From positions 1-15,559 of the forward strand of contig JBFRWI010000020.1 of assembly GCA_051439505.1 (NCBI GenBank): a stretch of 15,559 nt of DNA, given 5' to 3'. The notes below the pieces were generated by a model that worked only from the letters and a program-made list of their open reading frames with translations, searched no databases and was not told where the DNA came from. A program made the position numbers and the translations under genes. Shown piece by piece: positions 1-15,188 of this stretch (positions within the stretch are counted from its first letter, which is position 1; every line of letters begins with the position of its first letter). This stretch comes from Hormoscilla sp. Its GTDB lineage: Bacteria; Cyanobacteriota; Cyanobacteriia; Cyanobacteriales; Desertifilaceae.

Positions 1-1
1 C

Positions 2-1336
2 CCCCCCGCCCGTGCTCGCCGGCGCTGCCTCCGCGCCGCACGCCGCCCCCCCCCCGCCCTTCGTCTGGGGGGTGGGGGGCGCATAGGCGGGGCCCGCCAC
101 CAACGGATCCCCCCCGGCCCCCCTTCCAAAGGGGGGAGTAAGAGTTTCTTCGGGGCCCCTCTTTTCTTGGAGTTGTTGAGAAGCGGGATCCCCCCCGGCC
201 CCCCTTCCAAAGGGGGGAGTAAGAGTTTCTTCAGGTGCCCAAGTTAAGGAAGTGGGATCTGCCTCCGGCCCCCCCCTTTCTAAGGGGGGTTGGGGGGGAT
301 CCTCCGGTTCCCTTTCTATTTCCCACTTGACGATAGTCTGGCCACCACTTTCCTCCGGGAAACTCTCCGTTCCCAACTCCGAACTCCGAACTCCGAACTC
401 CGAACTCCCTACGAGGATATAACGACTGTCTGGTGTGAGTGCGACGGCGTAGAATGGTTCGCCATTCTCATTCTCTAGCTCGTGCAGGCATTTTCCTGTC
501 TGGACTTCCCAGATCTGTAATATCCCATCTGCGGTTCCGCTCAGGGCGATGCCCATGTCTGGGCTCAGGCTGACTGCGTAGATGTCTCCTGAGTTGAGTT
601 CTTCCTCTGCTTCGGCGTCCGGCAACCTCTCGGGAAACTCCTTTACTAAGGCTCCGGTTTCCAGTTCCCACAGTTTCACGGTCTGGTCCCTGCTGCCCGA
701 TAGGGCATATTTGCCATCGGCAGAGATCTCTACTGACATGACTTCCTTCTGGTGCCCTGTCATTGTCAACAGGCATTTGCCACTGGCTATGTCCCACAGT
801 TTCAGGCTGCGGTCGAAGCTGCCTGACAGCAGTTGGCTGCCGTCTGGACTCAGGGCTAGGCTCCGCACTGGCCCTTGATGTCCCTCTAAGGTGCGGAGGC
901 ATTTTCCCGTGGCTATGTCCCACTGTTTGATGCTTTTGTCGGTGCTGCCGGAGAAGCCATAGCGACCATCGGCACTCTCACAGACTGCCATTACTGCTCC
1001 GCTATGTCCGATAAATGTTTGCTGGCATTCTCCTGTGGCTTCGATGCCTCCGGGATGCTTCCCAAAAACCCCGGAGGCTTCGATATCCCACCGTTTCATG
1101 GTCTGGTCCCGGCTGCCTGATAGGGCGTACCTACTATCCTGGCTGATGTAGACTGAGTAGATATGGTCTTGATGTCCGACAAATGTTTGCTGGCATTCTC
1201 CAGTGGCGATGTCCCACAGTTTGAGGGTTTTGTCCGTGCTGCCTGATAGGACTTGGCTGCCTGAGGCGCTGACTCTGAGGGTGACGATCTCGCTTCCGTG
1301 ACCCTGGTTAAATTTGGTCCCCTTTCTCACCTTCAT
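2..1336 (-). CDS. WD40-repeat (7-bladed beta-propeller) protein with a Pro/Gly-rich repeat-derived tail; 3'-partial, runs off the window; absent from the supplied ORF track
   Basis: Manual translation from ATG at 1336-1334 gives MKVRKGTKFNQGHGSEIVTLRVSASGSQVLSGSTDKTLKLWDIATGECQQTFVGHQDHIYSV...SGSRDQTMKRWD...SGSTDKSIKQWD...SGSFDRSLKLWD...SGSRDQTVKLWE...SGTADGILQIWE...QTIVKWE. This is seven WD40 repeats, the last two degenerate. There is no stop codon in this frame down to position 2, and AGGAGG lies 5 nt upstream of the ATG. Confidence 0.92.
   Translation of the reverse strand, partial: MKVRKGTKFNQGHGSEIVTLRVSASGSQVLSGSTDKTLKLWDIATGECQQTFVGHQDHIYSVYISQDSRYALSGSRDQTMKRWDIEASGVFGKHPGGIEATGECQQTFIGHSGAVMAVCESADGRYGFSGSTDKSIKQWDIATGKCLRTLEGHQGPVRSLALSPDGSQLLSGSFDRSLKLWDIASGKCLLTMTGHQKEVMSVEISADGKYALSGSRDQTVKLWELETGALVKEFPERLPDAEAEEELNSGDIYAVSLSPDMGIALSGTADGILQIWEVQTGKCLHELENENGEPFYAVALTPDSRYILVGSSEFGVRSSELGTESFPEESGGQTIVKWEIEREPEDPPQPPLERGGPEADPTSLTWAPEETLTPPFGRGAGGDPASQQLQEKRGPEETLTPPFGRGAGGDPLVAGPAYAPPTPQTKGGGGAACGAEAAPASTGGG
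105..232 (+). repeat. Two identical 47-bp direct repeats (105-151 and 186-232) containing a CCCCCC-TTCCAAA-GGGGGG hairpin, a cyanobacterial short dispersed repeat type, inside the WD40 ORF
   Basis: GGATCCCCCCCGGCCCCCCTTCCAAAGGGGGGAGTAAGAGTTTCTTC occurs twice, 81 bp apart (in frame). Both copies fall within the repeated peptide PEETLTPPFGRGAGGDP on the minus strand. Confidence 0.85.
269..302 (-). repeat. Third copy of the same C/G hairpin repeat family, in the opposite orientation
   Basis: The minus strand reads GGATCCCCCCCAACCCCCCTTAGAAAGGGGGGGG, matching the GGATCCCCCCC-NN-CCCCCCTT-NN-AAAGGGGGG pattern of the 105 and 186 copies. It is translated in frame as DPPQPPLERGG. Confidence 0.75.
375..409 (+). 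repeat. Heptamer tandem repeat (AACTCCG)x5, STRR-like, within WD40 repeat 7
   Basis: AACTCCG occurs at 375, 382, 389 and 396, and AACTCCC at 403. It is translated in the WD40 frame as GSSEFGVRSSEL. Confidence 0.85.
1037..1084. repeat. Small palindromic insertion flanked by 9-bp direct repeats, in frame within the WD40 gene
   Basis: GGCTTCGAT occurs at 1037-1045 and 1076-1084 (39 bp apart). The stem is GCCTCCGGG (1046-1054) / CCCGGAGGC (1070-1078). The protein reads WDIEASGVFGKHPGGIEATGEC versus WDIATGEC in the neighbouring repeat. Confidence 0.8.
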
Positions 1337-1341
1337 TTCTT

Positions 1342-1347
1342 CCTCCT
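1342..1347 (-). promoter_or_regulatory. Ribosome-binding site (AGGAGG) of the WD40 gene
   Basis: Plus-strand CCTCCT reads AGGAGG on the minus strand. It lies 5 nt before ATG 1336, in the 28-bp gap after the upstream stop codon. Confidence 0.75.
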
Positions 1348-1364
1348 ACTCTTCGTCCCCTGGT

Positions 1365-4300
1365 TTACATCAGCCGCTGGATGCTGGCTATGGCTTCACT
1401 ACAATAACTGTCGTTAGGATTGAGTTCCAAGGCTTTTGCAAAGCTAGCAAGGGCTTCCTGGTAGCGTGCTAGGCTCATTAAGGCTTGGCCGCGCCCCCTC
1501 CAAGAGTAACAGTAGTCTTGCTTGAGTTCCAGGGCTTTGTCATAGCTAGCAATTGCCTCTTCGTACCGCCTTAGTTTAGAGAGTGCATCTCCCCGTTTTC
1601 TCCAAGCAGCATAGAAGTCCGGTTTGATTTCTAAAGCTTTGTCATAGCTATCAAGTGCTTCTTCGTTGCGGTTGAGGTTATAGAGCAGCACATTCCCCCG
1701 TTCTGCCCAAGCACCATAGTGCTTCGGTTCTGCTTCTAGAGCTTTATCATAGCTAGCGATTGCTTCTTCGTTGCGATCGAGGTTAAGTAGAGCAAAACCT
1801 CGCCTGTACCACGCAGGGAAATCATTATCTTTGATAGCGATCGCCTTATCGAGGCTTGCAATGACTTTTTCATAGCGTCCTAATCTTATTAAGATATCAC
1901 TTCTGCGGTTCCAAATATTGTATTCATCTGGCTTGGCGGACATTGCCAGATTATAGCTAGCCATTGGAGTTCTCCCGCAGCCTAAGTCTCGAAGTGCATC
2001 TCCCAGACTGTGCCAAGCCTCGCCAAGTGCATCCTGCTGCCAGTCCCAAGCTATATCGTCATCAGGCTTAACTTCTAAAGCCTTGTCGTAGCTAGCCAGC
2101 GCCTCCTCGTTACGCCCTAATGCATGGAGCACTTGACCCCGCCAATACCAAGCATCGTAATAATTAGGGTTGATGTTTACAGCCCTGCAAAAGCTACCCA
2201 AGGCTTCTATTTTGCGGTCTAGATGGTATAGGGCATAACCTCGCCAATACCAAGTAGCGTAGTCATCTGAATTCAAATTACAAAGAATATCATACCGCCC
2301 GAAAAGGGCATCCTTATTATTTGGTTCTGCTTCTAAAGCTTTGTCAAAGCTGGCTAGAGCTTCATCCCAGTGATTTAACTTGCGAAGCGCCTCGCCCCGT
2401 CCATACCAAGCTCCATAGCCGTTAGGCTGAAGTTTAATTCCCCTGTCATAGCTAGCAACTGCATCCGAGTATCGATCGCAACGTCTAAGCCAACCGCCTC
2501 GCAAACACCAAGCATCATAGTCATCTGCCTTAATTTCTAGGGCTTTGTCAATGCTAGCAATAGCTTCGTCTAAGCGTTCCATCTCTGCCAGTCCGACAGC
2601 CAAATTTTGCCAAGTCTCGCAGTCACGGGGGGGGTTTAGAGAACAAAGTGCCTCATTCCGATATATATTTGTCCTCGATACAAAATCCTCATCTGATGAA
2701 CCGTATTCAATAGCTTTGTCGTAACTTGCGATCGCATCTGAATAGCATTTTAGTTGGAAAAGCGCCTGCCCTCTTTCTTGCCAACTACTATAACTATCCG
2801 GTGAAATTTCAATAATTTTGTTATAGCTCTCAATTGCTTCTGCATATTTTTTTTGCTTACAAAGTACCCCGGCTTTCCCATGCAAAGCATCTTTGTAATT
2901 GGGATTTACTTCTATGGCACGGTTATAGCTATCCAACGCTTCTGATAATTTTCCTAATTTTACAAACGCATCACCTCTTAGAGACCATACTACATCCCTA
3001 TCATAGCCAATTTGGATAGCTTTTTCATAGCTTGTAATTGCTTCTTCATAACGCCCTAAGAATGCAAAAAACCATCCTATAAAACCCCAAGAATCATCAC
3101 TATCACTCTCTGGAGGATTGGCTAAAATTGCTTTTTTATAGCTTTCAATTCCTTCTTCATAACGCTCTAAAGCGCCTAATGCATATCCTCTCCAATACCA
3201 AGCATCATAATTATTGTCCTTTGCTATAATAGCCTGGTCTAAGTTCTTAATTGCTTCTTCACATTCTCTGAGTTGACAAAGTGCATTACCCTTCCCATAC
3301 CAAGCATCGTAGTTATTATGCTTGGCTTCGATCGCCTTGTCATATTTAGCGATCGCTTCTTGCCATCGACCTTGAAGGCGAAGTGCCTCCCCTTGTGCAA
3401 GCCATGCCTTGTATTCTACCTCATTACTGGAGGAGCGAACAACACGCCTCCTAGAAACCTTTTTCAGTGACTGTTTTAGTATATGTAGTAAAATCGACTG
3501 CTCTTGCTGCCAATTTTCCTGTATGGAACCAAACTTTCCTGGGGAGTTACACATCCGATCGTAAGCTATCTGTATCCCCTCATCTTGTGCTATAGTCAGA
3601 AAAGCCAAACGCGCCACTTTCGGATCTTGGTAAAGTAGTTGCAATGAATTATCGAAGCCCTCGGAGAGGATCTCCGCTCTAGACCCAAGGTTGAAAAGCC
3701 TATTGAAATCCAATTGAGAGAGATTGTACTCTCCCATGGCTAGTTTCAAGTTATCATCTTCAGATGGCACTCTATTTTGAGCCCGTTCTTGTTTTGCTAT
3801 TATCAGCCTTTGCAACCCGAGATACTTTTTCCCAACCCAGGCGACGGTATGCGCTACCTGGTCTGGACTTTCCAACTGCTGTTCTTTGGCAAGGCTAGCA
3901 AAAGCATCTGCATGGCGACCTAGTTTATGTAGCGTAACGCTCTGTTCTATCCAGACATTATCGTTACTTAGATCTCGTTCCAGCGCTTTCTTGTAGAACT
4001 CTAGGGCTTTTTCGTAGCGACCCTGGTTATGCTGGACAACTCCGCGAATTTCCCAAGACTCGGAGTGCTGACGCTTGAGCATTTCTGCCAAACGATCGAA
4101 CCCTGGTAGATTAACCTGATATAGTTCTAGAAGTTCTAATAACTCTAGGGCTACATGACGCAACCAACCGATAGGCGGATCTTTCTCATCCAGGATTTGC
4201 TTTATTTCCGCCAAACCACGCTCTGTTTCTCCCAACAGAATAGTGCAAAGCGCTCTATGCCACTTATCTAAGGGAGTGTTCCCTTTTGATGAGGCTAGAC

Positions 4301-7300
4301 TCTGTTGCCAATAATCTCTGGCTATATCTGCTTGTCCTCCCAGGATGCTCCTTATACCCAACCAGTAAAAAGTATGATCTAGATCTTCAGAATCTCCTTG
4401 ATTCTCAAAAATTCTATAGAATTCTTGGAAAGCATGTTCTGCTTGGCTCAAATCTCTTTCCCACAGGTACAGTTTGCCATACCATAACCGTATACGCCAA
4501 TCGGTCCGGTAAAGTTCGATCGCAAAGTTAAGTACCTCCCTTGCTTTATCGTACTCACCGAATCTCATATGCAACATCACATTATAGTTAATAAGCCACA
4601 TCGACTGCTCTTCACCCACCTTCGCTTTGTTGATGTCATTGAGAGCGCTATCATAGTCGCAAAGGTAAATATATGCTAAGATGCGATATAGCCTCAGCCG
4701 TGCTATGTCTTCCTTTTTTACAGCACTGCTTAATGCCTGGTTGATATGAGCGAGAGCTTGCTCGAAGTCATGTAGGTTAATATGTATCTCACCAAGCCCC
4801 TCGTGAGCTAATCTGTAGTTGGGGTCAAGCTTCAGCGCTTGCTGGTAGGCATCTTTAGCTCGGTTAAGGTCGCCCTGGGAGAGTACATCCCCTAAGCCAT
4901 AATAGTTATAGGGTTTTTCTGGTTCAATCTCAATAGCACGTTGGCATTCTTGTATCCCATCGTCGTATCGTTTTAATTCCTTATATGCAAATCCGCGATA
5001 AACATAGTAAGCCCCATTTTCTGGGTGCAGCTCTATTGCATGATTAAAGATAGAGAGTGATTCATGCAATTCTGCCTGAGATTCCGCTTGCTTATTGAGG
5101 GCTAGCCATCCCACATCCGCGATCGCCTCTGCTAAATATTCGCGCAAGACTTTCGCCTCTTCCGGTACGCACTGCTTGGCTTCCAGATACTTGGACAGAG
5201 CCTCTGGGTATCGTTCCTGGTTGAAGAGTAAAACACCGCGCCACCTCAACGCCATCGCCACCCACTCTTTTTTTCCCGGTTCCCGGTTGATTAGGGGATC
5301 CAACTCATCCAGCAGGCGAGATGAATCTTCTGGAGTAGCAGAAGAAGCTAACCCCTGCTGGAAAAGCTGCAACCGAGTCCCATTTTGTCTGGTAACTGTA
5401 AATGGCTCCGCAATTTCCAAGAGACTACGCGCCCAATTTTTATTGTATAACCAACCTTCTACCAAATGGGGAATCAGATACTCCCAGCCCTCGTCTTCGC
5501 CCATCCAGAAGGAATGGTGCGCCAGATCGGCTATTACTTCCTGGACTTCTTCCTTCTCCAGACGCTTATCTGCGCTAGTCAAGCCCTCGGTTAACTCAGA
5601 CAGTCGGTTTTGCAAATATACTAGCGCCCGCCTGTTAATTTCCTGCACCATTTCATCGGTACGCTGCGCTGGATCCAGCAAATATTGCTTCAGGAAATAA
5701 TCAAATTTATTATTTAGTTCCAGTCTTTCTGGCAAAATTACAGAAGGATAGCGTTCGTAAAGCTCTTGCACTCTCCCCTGCACATCTGTCACCTCCAGCA
5801 CCGCCTGCAATAATCCCTCATCCCAGCGACGCATCATCCCCATCGCGTACACCGCCAGCAAATCTTTCTTATCTTCCTTATCCTGGAGGCAGTGAACCAA
5901 AAATCGTTCGCAGATCTCGTCAACCACCCGCTGATAAGGAGTCTTCTTCTGAGGATCGCTAACCTTAGGAAGGGGATGGGCAATAACTTCCAGGTTTACC
6001 CCCTCGCGCCACATAGAGGCGGCCTTGTTGACCACAAAGGGAATACCCAGGCTGAATTTGGCGATTTCCTCAGCGTCTTTTTCCTTCAGGGGTCGTTCCG
6101 GGACGAACTGTTTAAAATAGGTAATGATGTTATCCCGGTTAAACTCGCTCAGTTCCTTGGCGAACAGGCGCTCTTCGGGGAAGTCCTGGCGATAACCCCG
6201 AAAATAAACCTTCCCACTGCGACTGCTGTCTGCGAGATTGGCCCGTCCGGCAATTAGCCACACAGTCCGACTGCCACTATGCTTAATCACTTCCCGCAGA
6301 GTATAGTCACAGTCTGGGGAGTCGGCCACCTCGTAGGTATCGAAAAAGAGCAGCAGGGGCTTTTTCTGGGACAGTTGAGCAATACCCCTGCCCAGGGCCC
6401 AGGCCAAACAGCGTTCTGACTGTTGATAGACCTCCAGTTCCGCCTCAGTCAAGCGAGACTGCACGAACTGCAAAGCGAGATTAAAAGTTTCCAAGGCTTC
6501 CGGATCCTCCGGTTGACCTTGACGCAGCAACTTAATTATCCCCTCAGCACCCAAACGACCCAGTGAGTTGAGGGAGTCCCTTTCCCCGTGCAGTTCCGGT
6601 TTGGGTTGCAAAGCTTCCTCAATTTTCCTCTTCGCCTCATTCCAGAGATCCTGCTGCTGACGGTACTCCTGGAAATCTTCATTACTCCCCTCCCCGACCA
6701 ATCTCTGATAGATGACCTCCAGAGTAGTATGGGGCTGGATGTTATCGTGTCCTACTTGCAGACCGATGTAGCGGTCTCTTTCCACCTCCCAGTCCAAGAA
6801 CAGAGTCTGGAACTTACCCTCAAAAGGATGTTTGCTGCTATTCTGTTGCAGGCGTCGCAACAGTTGAGTTTTGCCCATACCCCCAACACCGGAAAAGAGA
6901 AAAATATGGGGCAGGTTATCCCCCCCCTGCTGAGGTTCCAGAGACTCCAAAACCCCTGCCAACTTTTCCTGTTCCTGGAGGCGTCCGAGAAAAACTGATT
7001 TATGGGCGCTCAGGGGACGGGGCAAAACCTCCTCGGTAAAGACCTGCTCGTAAATGGGATTATAGATCTTCAGATAGCTTCCCCGCTTGACCACCAAACC
7101 CGTCAGGCGAAACTCCAGTTGTTCGGGACTGTCCTGAGCGAGTAATTGTCCCTGCTCTCGCAGATCGCGATACAGTGATAAAAGCCGAGAGGAATTCGGG
7201 CTTTTCATGATGCGGTCTCGGATCGTCTGCAAATGTATGGGCTTATCTTGCTCTTCCCAGTCCCCAAGGATCTTGGTTTGCACCAACTGTTTCACCCGTT

Positions 7301-8117
7301 CCTCTTCCCTGCCTGGGGGAATAGGATCTGAAACCTTGGACAGCAGGAGACAAAGTTTTTGAGTCAGGAAAGGTTGACCCCCGGTCCACTTTAACACCTC
7401 ATCCAGTATTTTTTGGGGATTGTCGGAAATTCCTGACAACCCCCTCTGCAAGGGTTCCGTGTCCTTTAATTCAAAACCGGTCAATTCGATCGCCTGGCCG
7501 ATATTGAAAGGACTGTTAGCCTTATCTTGAATCAGGTCGTAGGGACTGGCGACCCCCAACATGGCAAAAGTGAGTCGCCCATAGGCAGCATTGCCAGCTC
7601 TTCTGTTATAGCAAGCCTTAATTTGGGCAAAAAAGTCATCTCTGTTAAAGCCTTGCAAGCTGAGGAGGTTATCGATCTCATCTATAAATAAAACTATATT
7701 AGCATCGAGCAACTGTAGCAGGACATCTTCAAAAAACTTGCTGAGTCTTTGGGGATAAGACAGAACCTTGTGTTCGGACCACCAGATCTCCAGATCGAAC
7801 CGGTCATCAATATCCAGATTGACGCTGCTCGCGATACTGTCTATTAAGCCCAGATAAAATTCCTGGGGAGTAGCATTTCTGCCAATTTCGGTAATATCAA
7901 CCCAACCGCAGACCAAACCGTCAGTTTCCAGTCGCTGTTTAGTCCGCCACCCCAAGCTGGACTTACCCATCTGCCTGGTGTTGAACACGTAACAGAATTG
8001 GCCGGACTTTAAACCTGCGTAGAGCTCATCATCAGCCTGTCGTTGCACGTAGGTGAGGGCACCTTCCTCTAGGCTACCACCGACTTGGTATTTGTAATTT
8101 AGGGGTGTGTCGTTCAT
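1365..8117 (-). CDS. 2250-aa AAA_35-like NTPase + STAND/AAA_16-like NTPase + helical region + large tetratricopeptide-repeat array
   Basis: The N-terminus has YQVGGSL...[11 protein letters not shown], Walker A-like [11 protein letters not shown], Walker [15 protein letters not shown] and [13 protein letters not shown] (cyanobacterial AAA_35). A second module has [25 protein letters not shown] and SLGIPF. The C-terminal part has many TPR units of the type [22 protein letters not shown]. Confidence 0.93.
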
Positions 8118-10102
8118 TTGTCAACTCCTAAACGATAACGATGGCCAAAATATTGACGATACAAACCGCAAGCGGGAATCACCGCATTGCCCTGAAACTT
8201 AACTAGGCCCCTACTAGCGAGATTAAAAGCCTCTTCGGTCTGAATTTCTACCGGTCCCTTAGCGGAGAGCACCTGTTGGAATTCTACCTTAGTTTGGGGA
8301 TGTTTTTCCAAATAAGTTAAGTGGCGGCGGAGAATGTGAGAGTAGTCACCTGCTTCCGTGGGGGCCATTTCCAATAGTACACTCAAAGTTTTCCGTCCCC
8401 GGGCGATTTCATAGAGACCCAACCTGATCATATAGGGATGACCGCCTACCATAGCCATAAGTTGGTCTAGCTGCTCGGTTGACCAGTCCAACCCGTGCCT
8501 GTTAACTAAATCCATCACCTGGGTCCGGTCCAGTTCTGGCAGTTGGATGGGAAGTCCGACGTTAAAGGGGGACTGGTTAATGTTTTCCTGAGAAATGTAG
8601 ACCTCCTTAGAATGGACGATTATCAACCGGAGCTTCTGCCATAGTACTTCATTTTTGCCCCGTTCGTGTAAGGCTCTGAGGATCGCAAAAAAATCCGTTG
8701 CGATTTCCGCAGCATCGAAAACCCGGTCCACTTCATCCAATGCTAGCACTACGGGGCTAGGAATTTTGGCCAATACATATTTCTTAATATAGTTGATACA
8801 TTTTTTATTGCTGCCCAGGGCACTGCGCCAATGGTCATCTACCCTAGCTTCCAAGTCTAACCCGTCTCTAAGCTCTTCGCAGAGCCAGCGCAAGAATCGA
8901 TCTATATTATGTAGAGCATCTCTATCTGCCTCTCCAATGGATATATTGGCGGTCCGATAGCCCTGACCTTCAGCATGAAAGAGAATCCGCATCAATAAGG
9001 AAGATTTGCCCATTTCTCTAGGTGCCTTGATCCGGATCATAGCACCGGGTCTGACAATTGTCTCGTAACAGTCTGATTCTATGGGAGGGCGTTCTATATA
9101 AAAAGGTGAGTCCAGAGGCACTTGACCTTTAGGCTCCTCCAAATCTGGTGTTAACTTAATTGTCGGCGATATGGGGCGAGGGCCATTTTGCTGAGGTTGC
9201 GTCTTGCCTCCGGACTGATTATATCCTACAGGCTCGAAAGGCTCCGAAACCTCCGAAACAGTTGGTAATGCTTGTAATGCTGCCAAAGCTTCAGATCCAT
9301 CTTGGTAGCGATCGCGAAAATCATAGCGTACCATCTTATTCAAGAAACTGGCCAATTCGTCGCTTACCTGGGCCCTTTTTTGCCAAATCACTTCTTTGTT
9401 CGAGCCAGTTTTAAACTTTCTCGGTTTCACGCCGGTCAAAGCTTCAATAGCAGTCATGCCCAAAGCATAGAGGTCAGTGCTATATTGAGCATTACAGGTT
9501 TGCTGCTCAAAGGGGGCATAACCGGGAGTGATAATCACGGCCAGGGAAATACGGGTAGTAACGGGTTCGCCATCAGGACCTATTTCCATACTAGCCACTT
9601 CTTTGACCGCCCCAAAGTCGATCAGCACCAAGCCCCCGGACTGCGATCGCATGATATTAGCGGGCTTAATATCGCGGTGAATAACATTATTTTGATGGAC
9701 AAAAGCGAGAATTTCCAGGACTTCAGCCAAGAGTTGACGGACCTGGGGTTCGGTCCAGGGATGGCCCGGTTTAATTTCCTGGCTGAGGTCGTGACCGGGA
9801 ATCAATTCCTGAACCAGATAAAAATGTTGACCTTCTTCAAAGTAGGCATAGAGTTGAGGAATTTTGTCGCTTTCGGTGCCCAGTCTTTGTAAGACCCTAG
9901 CTTCTCTACGGAACAGCTCGATAATGCCTCTTTCTCGGCGTATTCTAGGTTTGAGCCGCTTGACAACGCATTCCCGCTCGTCTGGGAGGTCCAAGTCTGC
10001 CGCTAAATAGGTTTCCCCCATGCCGCCCTCAGTGGACCCCAATTTCCGGAGGATTTTGTAGCGCTGTCGCACTGTCTTCCCAATGATGTTGTTACCAAAC
10101 AT
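8114..10102 (-). CDS. Hanks-type Ser/Thr protein kinase fused to a C-terminal AAA_35-like P-loop domain
   Basis: Kinase motifs are [41 protein letters not shown] and DLYALG. A Pro-rich linker follows, then [41 protein letters not shown] and VGGHPY. The stop codon overlaps the next start (ATGA, 8117-8114). Confidence 0.94.
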
Positions 10103-10114
10103 AAGTCACTTCGC

Positions 10115-10177
10115 TGTTAGCCCGCCGGGGGTTCAAACCCCCGGCTAATAGCTGAAGTCGGTTAAAACCGACTAACA
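10115..10177. repeat. Double-hairpin REP/MITE-like element just upstream of the kinase start
   Basis: Hairpins GCCGGGGGTTCAAACCCCCGGC (10124-10145) and AGTCGGTTAAAACCGACT (10156-10173) are bracketed by inverted TGTTAG / CTAACA. Confidence 0.65.
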
Positions 10178-10436
10178 AATAATGTCATGGTATTAGACGT
10201 ATTAGACTCTAGCATAGCCCGGGACTAATCGGATGGCAAGCCGGAATTATTAAGAAATTCTTTAATTCCGTCTCATGCACCGGCGATTTTTTTCTCTTCG
10301 CTTTTGGCCCGCTAATAGCATTATACCATAATCATCCCAGAATGCTTGAGATAATTTTACATTTTTTGACAAGATGGGACGATCGGGCGATCGCCTGTTA
10401 CCGGTGTCAGAGAACATGGGGCGATCGCATGTGCCC

Positions 10437-10559: not shown

Positions 10560-10626
10560 GTAGGGGCACAGCGCAGCGTATCCATAACATAACAATTAAG
10601 ACCGAAATCTATCTATCGCCGTGCCC
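10560..10626 (+). repeat. GTAG-type REP-like palindromic element, copy 2 (inverted relative to copy 1, different interior)
   Basis: The sequence is GTAGGGGCACAGCG ... TATCGCCGTGCCC. Its reverse complement starts GGGCACGGCGATA and ends GTGCCCCTAC, like copy 1. Confidence 0.7.
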
Positions 10627-10732
10627 TGGCCATTGGGTGGCATTCCCATTCCGAGGGCGATCGCCTGTTACCGGGGCCCGAGGACATGAGGCGATCGCCT
10701 GTTACCGGTGTCCGAGAACATGGGGCGATCGA

Positions 10733-10891
10733 GCGGCGATAGCGGGTCAGTTCGGCGGGAGTAGGATAGTCTTGCTTGAGAACCTTCAGGATAACTGCTT
10801 GGTTATCCACCTCTCGGATAGCTCGATAGACGAGGGAATTGGCACTTTCGTAGATTTGGGCTCCAATCTGGTAGCCAGTCAGAGCGATCAT
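10733..10891 (-). pseudogene. 5' remnant (~52 codons) of a cyanobacterial multidomain Ser/Thr kinase-AAA ATPase-sensor (HstK-like) gene
   Basis: MIALTGYQIGAQIYESANSLVYRAIREVDNQAVILKVLKQDYPTPAELTRYR matches the characteristic N-terminus of this family, which normally continues as ..QEYEI... An AAGGAG RBS lies upstream. Homology stops where the HIP1 repeat cluster begins, and the frame then reads repeat sequence to a stop at 10613. Confidence 0.8.
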
Positions 10892-11248: not shown

Positions 11249-11860
11249 ATGACTAGACCCCCAATTCTGAATCCTTCAGAAACCTACACTTTTAGCAGAT
11301 ACGCCGAACTCACCTTTGACCCAGAGGATATTCTAGCGGAGTTAGGTTTTAGTTTAGAAAAGGCAGATCTACAGCTTCCCCAATTTGCCGGACATTTGGA
11401 CTGCACCGATCTGAAAAAGAGATTAGAGCAAGATCTCCTCTACGTCGATCTTACCAGTGAAACCGCACGTAGAGAAGTTTTGATTGCACCAACGCTGTTA
11501 GAAATTTGTCGTTTATCTCAGGCAAAATTGAAGATCCATTATCCCGTCCTAGTGAATAACTTTTTGAAAGGAATTCTCGACTACTGCGTTATCTCACCAA
11601 ATAACTTGCTAGTCGTAGAAGCAAAAAATGCCGATTTGTCAAGAGGATTTACACAGCTGGCAGTGGAGTTAATTGCTCTGGATCGGTGGACAACTTTGGA
11701 TGTTCCCATACTTTATGGCTCCGTGACCACTGGAGATATATGGAAGTTCGGTCTCTTGCAGCGCGATCGCAAATCTGTGGTTCAGGATATTAAACTCTAC
11801 AGATCCCCAGCAGATTTGGATAATTTGTTAGACATTCTTATGGGAGTTATTCAATCTTAA
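11249..11860 (+). CDS. Conserved cyanobacterial protein with a predicted PD-(D/E)xK restriction-endonuclease-like fold (HsdR N-terminal-like)
   Basis: This 203-aa ORF has SETARRE..IAP, GILDY, VVEAK, GFTQL..ELIA and YGSVTTGDIWKFG, a D...ExK...Q pattern typical of this family. An AGGA lies just upstream of the ATG. Confidence 0.8.
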   Translation: MTRPPILNPSETYTFSRYAELTFDPEDILAELGFSLEKADLQLPQFAGHLDCTDLKKRLEQDLLYVDLTSETARREVLIAPTLLEICRLSQAKLKIHYPVLVNNFLKGILDYCVISPNNLLVVEAKNADLSRGFTQLAVELIALDRWTTLDVPILYGSVTTGDIWKFGLLQRDRKSVVQDIKLYRSPADLDNLLDILMGVIQS

Positions 11861-12112: not shown

Positions 12113-14974
12113 TCAAGTTTTTTTACCTATTAACCAATAAGTAGTCATTTCTCCTTTACCTTTGACGCTGATCTGGCCCCGTTCCTCAAATAGGTACTTA
12201 TCTAACAATAGCTTGTGGGTCGCTGCTGTTACTTGAATTCGGCCCGGTTCTCCAGATGATTCCATCCGAGAGGCAACGTTAACTGCATCACCCCACAAGT
12301 CATAGATAAACTTCTTGATGCCAATTACTCCTGCTACTACTACCCCACTGTTTATGCCTACACGAATTTGGAACGAGTCACCAACTTCTACTTGGAAATT
12401 GTTCACGGCAGCTTGCATTGCCAGTGCCATGTCCGCGATCGCCTCTGCATGATCTGGCCTCGGTACGGGGAGTCCCGCCGCCACCATGTAGGCATCGCCA
12501 ATGGTTTTAATCTTTTCTAAACCCAGTTGTTCAGCCAGTTCGTCAAAGCAGGAAAATATTTTATTCAGCAAATTTACCAAGGCGATCGGTTCTAGTCGCG
12601 CGGATAGGGGCGTAAAGCCGACAATATCGGCAAACATGATCGTCACCTCCTCAAAATTTTCCGCAATATGTTCTTGGCTTTGCTTGAGTTTGGCCGCGAT
12701 CGGCTCTGGTAAAATATTCAGTAATAATCGCTCGGATTTTTCCTGTTCGAGTCGTAGGGCTTGCTCGGCGGCCTGCCGGGCCCGGGCGATCGCAATTATC
12801 TCCCCAACTAACTCAAGCATTTTAATATCTTCTTCAGTCCAATCCTTAGTTGAATGAGAATCTAGACCGATAAATCCCACCAGTTTATCTAAATGAAGCA
12901 TAGGCACGTGGAGCGTGGCCTGGATACCGTACTCCTCCAGGAATGCTTTTTCAGCATCCGCCTCGATAGGAGGTAAATCAGCAGGAGAGCAAATTTTTAT
13001 GGTTTGGCCCGACTGGCACTGTTGGTGAAACCAAGATAACGCCGATTCGGAAAGGCCCTGTAATTGGTCAATTAAAGGCTCAATTCCCGCTACCCGCCAG
13101 GCGTGAGTGATGCTATATTGGTTTTGGTCATAGCCCATGACATAGCTGCGATCGCACTCTGTAAATTCCCCCATGAGTTGTAGCGCCAAATTGATTGCCG
13201 TATCCAGGTCTCGGTCAATAAAAGCGCGAGAGATTTGACTGAGCAGATTATCTCTCGCTGCTTCCAGTGCCAGGGCCCGTTCTGCTTGCTTGCGACTCGT
13301 GATATCCCGCGCTACCCAAATAACTGAGTTGTCTGAGATCCTCGTTATACTAGCAGCAGACCAAATTTCGCGTCCGGAAACCGCCAAGCAATATTCCACA
13401 TTCAGAGTTCGCTTCCTCTGCAACGCTTGTTGGATGTAGCCCAGAAATAGATCGGCAATTTCCAGTGCAAACACCTCATCCAACTTCTGGCCCAGCCTTT
13501 CTGTATAAGATTCATATAATAGAGATGGATTGATCGAGGCAATTTTCAGGTGGCGTCCTTCAGCATCAAATACAATCACCAATTCCGTCATCACTTCAAA
13601 CAAACCCCGCAACTCTGCCTCGGCGGCAACAAGTTGGGCCGTCCGTTCTTCAACTCGCTCCTCTAATTGCTCTTTGCTCTCTTCTAGGGCCAAAAACGAC
13701 TGACTCAACTGCATGGCCATTTGCTTAAATGCATCGGCCAAAACTCGCAGTTCCCTGATATAGAGGGGGCGATCTTTGTACACCTCTCGGTTTTGCTTGA
13801 TTCCCTCCCTAGCAATGGTGCGACTAGCTTCCCCCAAGCGCAGGATGGGTTTGGCGATCCAGTGAGCGGTCAAAAGTCCCAGTAAGGTGGCGATGCCTAA
13901 AGCCGCCGCGCACAGTCCAATGGTTGTGCGGGTGTTAGCGTTGATTCGTGCCATGAAATCGGCCTCAGGAACCACCACTACGATCGTCCATTCCAGCCCC
14001 CACTGGTCTCGATAAGGCGTTACCTGCACTAGCTGCCGATCGCCCTTGAACTCAAATTCCAGTTGAAGAGTTTCATCTATCTGGGTAAAATCGTCAAATT
14101 CTGCTTGTAGATGTGCTGCTGTCGATTGAATTAAAGCATTATCTACCTCGATCGCTTGCAGTCGCTGCGGTTCTCCGGAGTCCATAATAAAGGGCGGTTG
14201 GGAGGTCGAGGAAGCTACTAACAGTCCATTTGACTCCATGATGAAAGTTTGGCCCCTGCGACCGACTTTCAAACTCGCTAGAAAATGACTAATATCTAAC
14301 AAAGACAAATCTACAGCAAAAACCCCCATCAGCTTTCCTGGGGCTTCGTAGACAGGCTTGACCGCAGGCAGGGCCACATTCGGGTAGGGGGCTGCCCAAA
14401 CATATATCTCTCCCCATGTGGCTTTTTCCGCTTTCAATGCTGCTCTGTACCAGGGCCGATTTCGCAATTCATAGTTCTCTGTCACCGATATCATTTTTGT
14501 GCGATCGCCTTGCTCATCTGTGGCGTAGGTATAAAAAGCGCTCTGGGGAGATTTACCATCCCAATAGCCAACATGAAAATTTCCGTCTGCCGCTCGTTCC
14601 GCACCGCTGGCAAACAGTTTTTTTTCGCTACTGAAATAAATGTAGCTTGCCCAATCAAATAACTGGATCTGCTTGATAAAATGACTTTCTAAACCCCCGA
14701 TATCTTGCAAATTTAATTGGCCTATTTCCAGCTCAGCCGCGTTAATTTTATTAATCAGATGGGGCGTACTTAAGTAGTTGTCGAGTCGATCTTGGATGCG
14801 GTTGACGATCTCCAGGCGCAGCTGGGTGCTGAGGTCTTCAACTGACTGCTGACCGTTTCTAAATGAGAGATATCCCACAAGTCCCACTGCTGTAAATATT
14901 TGCATGACAAACGGCAGGACCATAAGACTTCTCAGAGGTACTTTTCCCGAAATTTTATTAAGCAACTGGTTCAT
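12113..14974 (-). CDS. Membrane-bound class III adenylate cyclase with TM-Cache-TM-HAMP-PAS-GAF-cyclase architecture
   Basis: There are two hydrophobic helices, Cache-type RNRPWY, HAMP (IAKPILRL...ELRVLADAFKQM), PAS (VIVFDAEGRHL...VARDIT) and GAF (TLHVPM...GFIGLD...WTEEDIKML). Cyclase motifs are IMFADIVGFT, KIKTIGDAYM and IYDLWGDAVNVASRMES, where the Lys/Asp pair indicates ATP specificity. The start is placed at the second Met (14974); 15034 is an alternative. Confidence 0.93.
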   Translation of the reverse strand: MNQLLNKISGKVPLRSLMVLPFVMQIFTAVGLVGYLSFRNGQQSVEDLSTQLRLEIVNRIQDRLDNYLSTPHLINKINAAELEIGQLNLQDIGGLESHFIKQIQLFDWASYIYFSSEKKLFASGAERAADGNFHVGYWDGKSPQSAFYTYATDEQGDRTKMISVTENYELRNRPWYRAALKAEKATWGEIYVWAAPYPNVALPAVKPVYEAPGKLMGVFAVDLSLLDISHFLASLKVGRRGQTFIMESNGLLVASSTSQPPFIMDSGEPQRLQAIEVDNALIQSTAAHLQAEFDDFTQIDETLQLEFEFKGDRQLVQVTPYRDQWGLEWTIVVVVPEADFMARINANTRTTIGLCAAALGIATLLGLLTAHWIAKPILRLGEASRTIAREGIKQNREVYKDRPLYIRELRVLADAFKQMAMQLSQSFLALEESKEQLEERVEERTAQLVAAEAELRGLFEVMTELVIVFDAEGRHLKIASINPSLLYESYTERLGQKLDEVFALEIADLFLGYIQQALQRKRTLNVEYCLAVSGREIWSAASITRISDNSVIWVARDITSRKQAERALALEAARDNLLSQISRAFIDRDLDTAINLALQLMGEFTECDRSYVMGYDQNQYSITHAWRVAGIEPLIDQLQGLSESALSWFHQQCQSGQTIKICSPADLPPIEADAEKAFLEEYGIQATLHVPMLHLDKLVGFIGLDSHSTKDWTEEDIKMLELVGEIIAIARARQAAEQALRLEQEKSERLLLNILPEPIAAKLKQSQEHIAENFEEVTIMFADIVGFTPLSARLEPIALVNLLNKIFSCFDELAEQLGLEKIKTIGDAYMVAAGLPVPRPDHAEAIADMALAMQAAVNNFQVEVGDSFQIRVGINSGVVVAGVIGIKKFIYDLWGDAVNVASRMESSGEPGRIQVTAATHKLLLDKYLFEERGQISVKGKGEMTTYWLIGKKT

Positions 14975-15188
14975 GTTTTTAACCTTAATACAGGACCTGC
15001 TAAAATTTTGAATCGTTAATAAGCTGTCGCGCATCTAAACTGCATGTTGGGGCCGACGGTAAAATCGAGGTAACCCACGACAGGAAAACGTTTCAGCCAG
15101 AACGGCAATTTTAGACTATGCAATTTAAATGCATCACAGCTTATAGCATTTTATCTTATTAGTGCGATATCTGGTGAAATAGCCTCTT

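Follow-up and report, generated by a model that had tools for sequence, protein, structure and literature searches.

Can a bacterial STAND protein hand its signal to a protein kinase that is encoded by another gene? The question is raised by a three-gene cassette of Hormoscilla sp. on contig JBFRWI010000020.1 (C20; 15,559 nt), the whole of which was analysed and is called the window below; the genome assembly comprises 6.47 Mb and is 93% complete. The cassette encodes a Hanks-type Ser/Thr kinase carrying an AAA_35 domain (type A), a giant protein with a second AAA_35 domain (type B), a second STAND module (S2) and tetratricopeptide repeat (TPR) arrays, and a WD40 propeller protein. It combines a common, apparently unstudied ATPase pair with an NLR-like protein and a likely membrane propeller protein; it is real, rare and mobile, and it likely constitutes an undescribed signalling relay. 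As to how it operates, we give about even chances to a mobile, membrane-tethered STAND-to-kinase phosphorylation relay in which type A docks on type B.

Organization of the Cassette

The three open reading frames (ORFs) lie on the minus strand. Genes 1 and 2 share an ATGA overlap (8117-8114), and genes 2 and 3 are separated by 28 nt with an AGGAGG located 5 nt 5' of the ATG at 1336; the overlap and the gap with AGGAGG are as described in a first-pass annotation that had been made from the letters of this DNA. Pfam and hidden Markov model (HMM) searches also bore out its three P-loop modules, its Ser/Thr kinase and its TPR and WD40 scaffolds: gene 1 consists of kinase and AAA_35, gene 2 of AAA_35, AAA_16 and TPRs, and gene 3 of WD40 repeats, and the Walker A and B motifs are intact in all three P-loops. 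NCBIfam returned generic kinase and TPR-type matches only, and no transmembrane helix was predicted in genes 1 and 2. The features, with the evidence in brackets, are as follows.

8114..10102, minus strand: gene 1 (P0001, 662 aa), Hanks-type Ser/Thr kinase with C-terminal AAA_35 type A (ORF, Pfam)
9302..10060, minus strand: kinase domain, aa 15-267, Pkinase (Pfam, motifs)
8144..9133, minus strand: AAA_35 type A, aa 324-653, 432 bits, Walker A APREMGKS, Walker B LALDE (Pfam)
1365..8117, minus strand: gene 2 (P0002, 2250 aa), AAA_35 type B, STAND module S2 and two TPR arrays (ORF, Pfam)
7035..8075, minus strand: AAA_35 type B, aa 15-361, 84 bits, Walker A TRQMGKS, Walker B LFIDE (Pfam)
5268..7016, minus strand: STAND module S2, aa 368-950, with helical and winged-helix region; AAA_16 at aa 376-612 (Pfam, model)
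6210..6218, minus strand: split point of related cassettes (about aa 634-636; HEAT...X...NACHT-HEAT insertion), uninterrupted here (alignment to relatives)
3858..5237, minus strand: first TPR/helical array, irregular, about aa 961-1420 (Pfam, local HMM)
1389..3392, minus strand: second TPR array, regular, 19 repeats, about aa 1576-2243 (local HMM)
1337..1364, minus strand: gene 2/gene 3 gap with AGGAGG ribosome-binding site (sequence; a contig from a second study spans the gap)
2..1336, minus strand: gene 3, 5' part (P0003, 445 aa, 3' end open), 7 WD40 repeats and a repeat-encoded Pro/Gly linker reaching to the contig end (ORF, local HMM)

A record from another study (run X5) covers positions 609-1559 with 44 differences and spans the gene 2/gene 3 junction, and diverged pieces of all three genes are present in that study; in two runs, possibly of the source sample, read coverage of the locus is even. 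The fusion of type B, S2 and TPRs recurs in P0004 (2233 aa, from another record), whose S2 is 86% identical to that of the window.

The kinase retains K48 (the VVK lysine), HRD and DFG, and reads IT where most paralogues read GT and the orthologues CT. In the kinases of four related cassettes described below (L059, L071, L164, L261), HMD replaces the HRD of the window kinase (non-RD type). The S2 model (predicted local distance difference test score, pLDDT, 87) matched best the folds of MalT, Apaf-1, an archaeal STAND-TPR protein, CED-4 and Avs3, with modest template modeling (TM) scores of 0.24-0.40, and the local HMM counted 25 TPR repeats in gene 2.

AAA_35 Types A and B in Cyanobacteria

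Types A and B are distinct paralogues with 20% identity over 327 columns, and the Pfam AAA_35 model matches type A strongly and type B weakly. AAA_35 is present in 54 of 61 genomes of the order. The pairing was surveyed in 60 windows around high-scoring type-A matches, a non-random choice that contained 63 A genes. A co-oriented B gene lies at most 300 bp from A in 24 of these and further downstream in the fetched window in another 14. A/B pairs are common in cyanobacteria. The N-terminal segments of type-A proteins (58 of at least 60 aa) carry TIR_2 in 24 cases, GerE-type helix-turn-helix (HTH) domains in 5, cyclase, CHAT and sigma-70 region 4 domains in 3 each, and a kinase in 1. Tails were found on 37 of 45 B genes; 17 of them contain WD40 repeats and 18 a transmembrane-like segment, and GAF domains occur in 9 of the 19 scanned tails lacking WD40 (20 such tails in all). 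Because the N-terminal segments of A and the tails of B sort in this way, type A generally carries outputs or effectors and type B sensors, as far as domain content can tell.

The model of type B (pLDDT 92) is nearest in fold to archaeal PAB2304 and SSO1545, then to ORC/Cdc6; in the structure search, 2qen and 2fna ranked first and second with a TM-score of about 0.55. Sequence searches of the Protein Data Bank with A and B profiles gave weak RecA/ORC2 matches only.

Several variants of the pair were encountered. Natural B-A fusions in one ORF (L140:9441-11738, 766 aa; G005:C1:5710357-5712984, 910 aa) are consistent with both domains acting together. At L103, L107 and L116, kinase proteins of 1,876-1,946 aa bear a terminal type-B domain and are convergent with short type-A genes. 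Genome G004 contains about 20 short repeated AAA_35 fragments, several of them at contig ends, which suggests a gene piece carried by a mobile element.

Predicted Complex of Types A and B

The first-pass annotation had supposed that the two AAA_35 domains couple kinase and sensor, and complex modelling now predicts such a coupling. Alignments of 27 rows, three runs and 3 controls were used. The A+B pair of the window scored 0.73 (0.71-0.73 in the three runs) against 0.27 for the best control, with contact agreement of at least 94% and partner pLDDT of at least 87. Of 157 solved pairs, 116 reach the score mark applied, and of 215 mismatched pairs, 2 do so; for self-made alignments these counts are only rough.

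In the predicted interface, residues of A including R476, which is invariant (27/27), lie against Walker A and Walker B residues of B (R48, E147). The Walker A Lys is present in 27/27 rows in both A and B, the Walker B DE in 27/27 rows in B, and the latter is also intact in the A domain of the window. The matching Arg of B occurs in 24/24 ordinary pairs and is replaced in the three aligned STAND-fused B domains (by K, T and A). This hints, from the alignment, at a coupling in this cassette that may be one-way rather than alternating.

Distribution, Orthologous Cassettes and Mobility

S2 was detected in 4/401 genomes of the phylum by single-sequence search and in 11/401 genomes of the order by profile; it was not found in the 4/4 congeners or the 13/13 family members searched. 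A single-sequence S2 pattern scan of genome contigs returned no match, and an alignment-based scan did return matches. The congeners keep the PD-(D/E)xK-like and cyclase genes that flank the cassette in the window, and among the matches listed their only cassette remnant is a 426-bp piece of the kinase gene in one congener. The genome searches showed a patchy distribution, and not that of a universal housekeeping operon.

Among 80 genome loci, S2 is contiguous, without B and without a conserved upstream neighbour in 71. In the other 9 it is split at one fixed point into S2N-HEAT, a gene X and NACHT-HEAT-S2C. Gene X is conserved (about 280 aa), has no match in Pfam, PADLOC or the Atlas, was detected in 9/301 genomes of the L071 family but not in the Hormoscilla genome. 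Two types of split cassette were distinguished. Type 1 is full-length in L059 (Mastigocoleus testarum BC008), L071 (Calothrix parasitica NIES-267), L164 (a metagenome) and L261 (G869), and partial in L067 and L070; its order is FHA-winged helix-turn-helix (wHTH) gene, kinase-A, B-S2N-HEAT, X, and NACHT-S2C-WD40-transmembrane helix-C-terminal domain. Type 2 (full-length in L056, L072, L074, L161 and L262) has GUN4-containing genes upstream, no WD40 and no C-terminal domain; in the four type-2 loci scanned, the upstream genes also carry EAD1, EAD7, TRADD-N, trypsin, CHAT or caspase domains. WD40 together with the C-terminal domain was thus found in 4/4 full-length kinase-A/B cassettes versus 0/5 full-length GUN4-type cassettes, and the C-terminal domain in both type-1 genomes tested and 0/3 type-2 genomes. 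The FHA-wHTH gene (OmpR-type wHTH) lies directly upstream of the kinase in 4/4 full-length orthologous cassettes. At L164, an in-frame stop sets the WD40 part apart.

The co-conservation expected by the first-pass annotation was thereby recovered, with the orthologues together and in the same order in the four full-length type-1 loci. For kinase, A, B and WD40 of L071, the best match in the Hormoscilla genome was each time the C20 gene; the kinase, A and B of the window nevertheless reach higher scores with some paralogues in the genome. In FastTree analyses, kinase, A and B of the window grouped with L059/L071/L164 with supports of 0.97, 0.91 and 0.99 (38, 70 and 48 sequences, respectively), and the two S2 halves grouped with the split S2 family (supports 89/96 and 100). 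The rare C-terminal domain is common to the Hormoscilla genome and these distant cyanobacteria, at about 34-46% identity.

These data bear on the alternative that chance alone brought an ordinary AAA_35 pair together with a STAND-TPR gene of the stand-alone kind and an unrelated WD40 gene, without joint function. Such an origin would accord with the 71 loci at which S2-TPR stands alone, with the presence of AAA_35 in most genomes of the order and with the abundance of WD40 proteins of this type. It would leave the same gene order, the congruent trees of kinase, A, B and S2 and the C-terminal domain common to distant cyanobacteria without explanation. We consider it very improbable, since co-conservation has largely refuted it. 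On these searches and trees, the cassette is rare, patchy, mobile and of common origin with the Nostocales-type cassettes.

With regard to mobility, the type-1 copies differ in their flanks. The L071 copy (L071:1143-15450) lies in an element of roughly 14 kb that interrupts nifD, with a second nifD break after it; the halves of nifD enclose it, an integrase and an 11-bp direct repeat are present, and it is thus cargo of an excision element.

The split itself offers further observations. A split STAND with gene X was seen in L056, L059, L064, L065, L067, L070, L071, L072, L074, L161, L164, L261 and L262, and this gene set is kept across several cyanobacterial families with swappable upstream effector genes. 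An excision or shufflon that restores the split STAND was considered and rejected: inspection by eye revealed no DNA repeat common to both junctions and no recombinase inside the insert. Re-fusion of the window S2 from a split ancestor is not favoured, the linker having its full intact length; a single clade of the split S2 forms was not rejected (approximately unbiased test, p-AU 0.25).

Gene 3 and Its Likely Continuation

Gene 3 was cut by the assembly break. The propeller announced by the first-pass annotation is present with its 7 WD40 repeats, but it does not represent a complete stand-alone protein. After about aa 345 the gene enters a repeat array, and then contig C20 ends. The two features concerned are as follows.

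1..308, no strand assigned: repeat array at the assembly break, a short palindromic element (about 190 further genomic hits) and 55-nt direct repeats (BLAST)
G000:C69:3-2315, plus strand: likely continuation of gene 3, with second propeller, transmembrane helix and C-terminal domain of about 120 aa (shared repeat peptide, tail match)

The first ORF of contig C69, whose 5' end is open, begins with the repeat peptide at which gene 3 breaks off. It encodes 7 WD40 repeats, a transmembrane helix with a hydropathy of 2.7 and, at the C-terminus, a domain in which two Cys are conserved. Moreover, the transmembrane and C-terminal tail of L059 and L071 has a single match in the genome, at the end of this ORF (E 1e-15 and 4e-24, respectively). 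Judged from these sequences, gene 3 very likely continues on C69, and its product would exceed 1,100 aa and comprise two propellers, a single transmembrane helix and a small domain on the outer side. It is likely to be a membrane-anchored two-propeller protein rather than a soluble adaptor.

When homologues of the first propeller were sought, generic multi-WD40 proteins dominated the result. With the C-terminal domain, none was found among 406 candidates, and the Atlas gave TPR-like leads only, all scoring below 0.9. The idea that gene 3 is a WD40 tail that broke away from an ordinary B-WD40 gene was dismissed, as the B-WD40 protein of this genome was not among its top BLAST hits.

The repeats in the gene 3 linker are one of several signs that could point to a decaying or incomplete copy, that is, a cassette of real ancestry that has lost its regulator and ceased to signal. 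The FHA-wHTH orthologue was not found in the genome, a truncated kinase fragment and repeats lie just upstream, and the conserved Arg of B (24/27) is Lys here. Yet the 6.75-kb ORF is intact and P0004 repeats its architecture, all catalytic motifs are kept, and the Arg is lost in both aligned orthologues as well, so its loss appears to be old. Decay is accordingly rated as improbable.

Proposed Mechanism and Its Weighing

In the relay that we propose, the gene 3 protein would span the membrane once and expose its Cys-containing domain on the outside, and its cytoplasmic propellers would scaffold the STAND-TPR protein. A trigger, likely a stress or an invader, would switch S2 to an ATP-bound oligomer and so cluster the fused B domains. 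Clustered B would recruit A, whose face with R476 is predicted to pack on the Walker A/B pocket of B, and the kinases would be activated in trans. The resulting phosphothreonine would be read by the FHA-winged-helix regulator in the relatives and by another target in the Hormoscilla genome. The position of the FHA-wHTH gene in all four orthologous cassettes suggests a transcriptional output, and the relay thus probably ends in transcription, to judge from gene order.

Several points weigh against this proposal. Among the 63 A genes of the AAA_35 survey, 25 lack a B in the DNA fetched around them, and in the Hormoscilla genome the C20 pair is the only adjacent one, its other A and B genes being unpaired. 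Conservation in the interface columns does not exceed that of the remaining columns (0.66 vs 0.645, p about 0.34), and since A and B are homologous AAA+-like domains, the A-B score may echo generic AAA+ packing. The link of gene 3 to gene 2 rests on the S2C-WD40-transmembrane fusion in relatives; the C20-C69 join is inferred and not assembled; and, taken by itself, the first propeller supports orthology weakly, L059 and L071 ranking 26 and 28 of 122 WD40 proteins. In addition, the four full-length orthologous loci are related to each other, and the regulator was not found in the searched assembly, which is 93% complete.

The same parts could alternatively serve abortive infection against phages: TPRs or propellers would sense a phage protein, S2 would oligomerise in an Avs-like manner, and the kinase would phosphorylate host proteins and poison the cell. 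The Avs/NLR-like architecture and fold of S2-TPR are in line with such a function, as is the TIR domain that occupies the kinase's slot in 24/58 type-A genes. The EAD1, EAD7, TRADD-N, caspase, trypsin, CHAT and GUN4 domains of the sister cassettes count as conflict-system markers in Kaur et al. (PMC8195603). Furthermore, the cassette is patchy and mobile, one copy being the nifD-element cargo and one lying beside a probable DNA methyltransferase gene (motif by eye), and the kinase matches PADLOC PD-T4-6 (E 8e-88; aa 9-287, profile positions 29-306 of 350). This match, however, does not extend beyond the kinase domain; for A and B there is no matching PADLOC model, and for S2 there are just two marginal matches. 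Neither here nor in L059 do the flanks form a defence island, the FHA-wHTH regulator and a transmembrane protein with an outer domain fit signalling better, and many B genes carry GAF sensors. The immunity module suggested by the first-pass annotation was consequently not shown, given the PADLOC result for the three NTPase domains and the flanks of the locus. Abortive infection is possible but somewhat doubtful; since a defence-related signal could end in transcription, it and the membrane-tethered phosphorylation relay are not exclusive.

Neighbourhood of the Cassette

The window is mosaic in composition. Segments 301-1336 and 5268-8117 (B, S2 and WD40; 3.9 kb) have a GC content at third codon positions (GC3) of 0.56-0.62 and no GCGATCGC site, and the TPR region (1365-5267) has a GC3 of 0.42 and 4 GCGATCGC sites; genome-wide, such sites occur at about 1 per kb. 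A high-copy intergenic repeat (10104-10190; 344 BLAST hits in the genome, many in congeners) abuts the kinase start codon. A probable pseudogene lies just upstream of the cassette at positions 10613-10891: an N-terminal piece of a large kinase gene, truncated by repeats rich in GCGATCGC, that matches the kinase gene at C69:15415 with 76% DNA identity. Beyond it follow the PD-(D/E)xK-like gene (11249-11860) and a Cache-HAMP-PAS-GAF adenylate cyclase gene (12113-15034), each 87-90% identical in 3/4 congeners and located on separate contigs in the two congeners where both were listed. A promoter and terminator scan upstream of the cassette gave results at chance level.

Significance

It is conceivable, if rather unlikely, that the AAA_35 A/B pair is a hitherto unrecognised plug-and-socket ATPase coupling device which this cassette stacks on an NLR, with a line of command running from membrane receptor to NLR, ATPase pair, kinase and FHA regulator. 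If so, interchangeable sensors (WD40, GAF, membrane receptors) would be joined to equally interchangeable outputs (TIR, HTH, cyclase, kinase) across cyanobacteria, and the cassette would be a bacterial counterpart, in logic, of NLR-to-kinase-to-transcription immune signalling. In the relatives, where a NACHT-HEAT insertion divides the NLR between two genes, it seems to have been retained. The predicted A-B docking would give the widespread AAA_35 domain a concrete, testable role, and the presence of the related cassette in two cultured strains, C. parasitica NIES-267 and M. testarum BC008, makes it testable.

Comparison With Known Systems

No description of this cassette was found in the literature searched (titles and abstract starts, few subscription papers covered), nor was a functional paper on AAA_35. 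The ATPase pair may be compared with the MNS clade. AAA_35 may correspond to the Npun2340/2341 family of this clade, and PAB2304 and SSO1545 are MNS-type ATPases. Leipe and co-workers are said to have described Npun2340/2341 in 2004 as tandem paralogous NTPase genes of cyanobacteria, with the domain C-terminal in the first product and N-terminal in the second. By this definition, genes 1 and 2 are alike, with AAA_35 C-terminal in gene 1 and N-terminal in gene 2; by the make-up of the clade, so are the archaeal SSO/PH-type ATPases (2qen, 2fna) as the closest folds of B. Unlike in that family, B continues here into a second, classical STAND and is followed by the gene of a likely membrane WD40 protein; no description of a function for the family was found. 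In PMC8195603 the MNS clade and the Npun2340/2341 family are named, and 'AAA_35' was not found in searches of supplements; the only mention of the domain that we found is in a sigma-factor survey, which lists it as a sigma-factor accessory domain (PMC11119718).

The TRADD-N/EAD conflict systems with AP-ATPase-TPR neighbours, as presented in PMC8195603, resemble the S2 sister cassettes with EAD1, TRADD-N, GUN4 or caspase directly upstream. The window, in contrast, has no EAD or TRADD-N gene, and the kinase-A/B pair takes that upstream slot. According to PMC8195603, nSTAND2 two-gene operons also have two STAND modules in adjacent genes; a hetero-multimer was proposed, in which one partner is inactive and the effector is GT4 or HEPN. 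Here neither partner has lost Walker A or B, and a kinase serves as effector. Avs proteins (10.64898/2026.01.04.697583) share the succession of STAND and large TPR-like sensor, and Avs3 is among the fold matches of S2. They differ in that gene 2 has no N-terminal effector; type B, predicted to recruit the effector in trans, takes that place, and the kinase is encoded by a separate gene. A scan with PADLOC-DB 2.0.0, a library that predates newer Avs families, gave no Avs match. In its proposed working the cassette resembles a split NLR, but by these features it belongs to neither Avs nor nSTAND2.

PknH-EmbR is a pair of Hanks kinase and FHA regulator, and such kinases are membrane receptors. 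The likeness is that the kinase of the orthologues adjoins an FHA and OmpR-type wHTH protein; in the cassette, unlike in PknH-EmbR, the kinase is soluble, the link to the membrane would run through the NTPase modules, and the regulator was not found in the Hormoscilla genome. Most known bacterial NLR-like proteins, finally, have the effector within their own polypeptide and cause cell death. The cassette suggests an NLR that recruits its effector in trans via a second ATPase pair and is tied to a membrane protein, and that in the relatives adjoins a transcription factor reading phosphothreonine.

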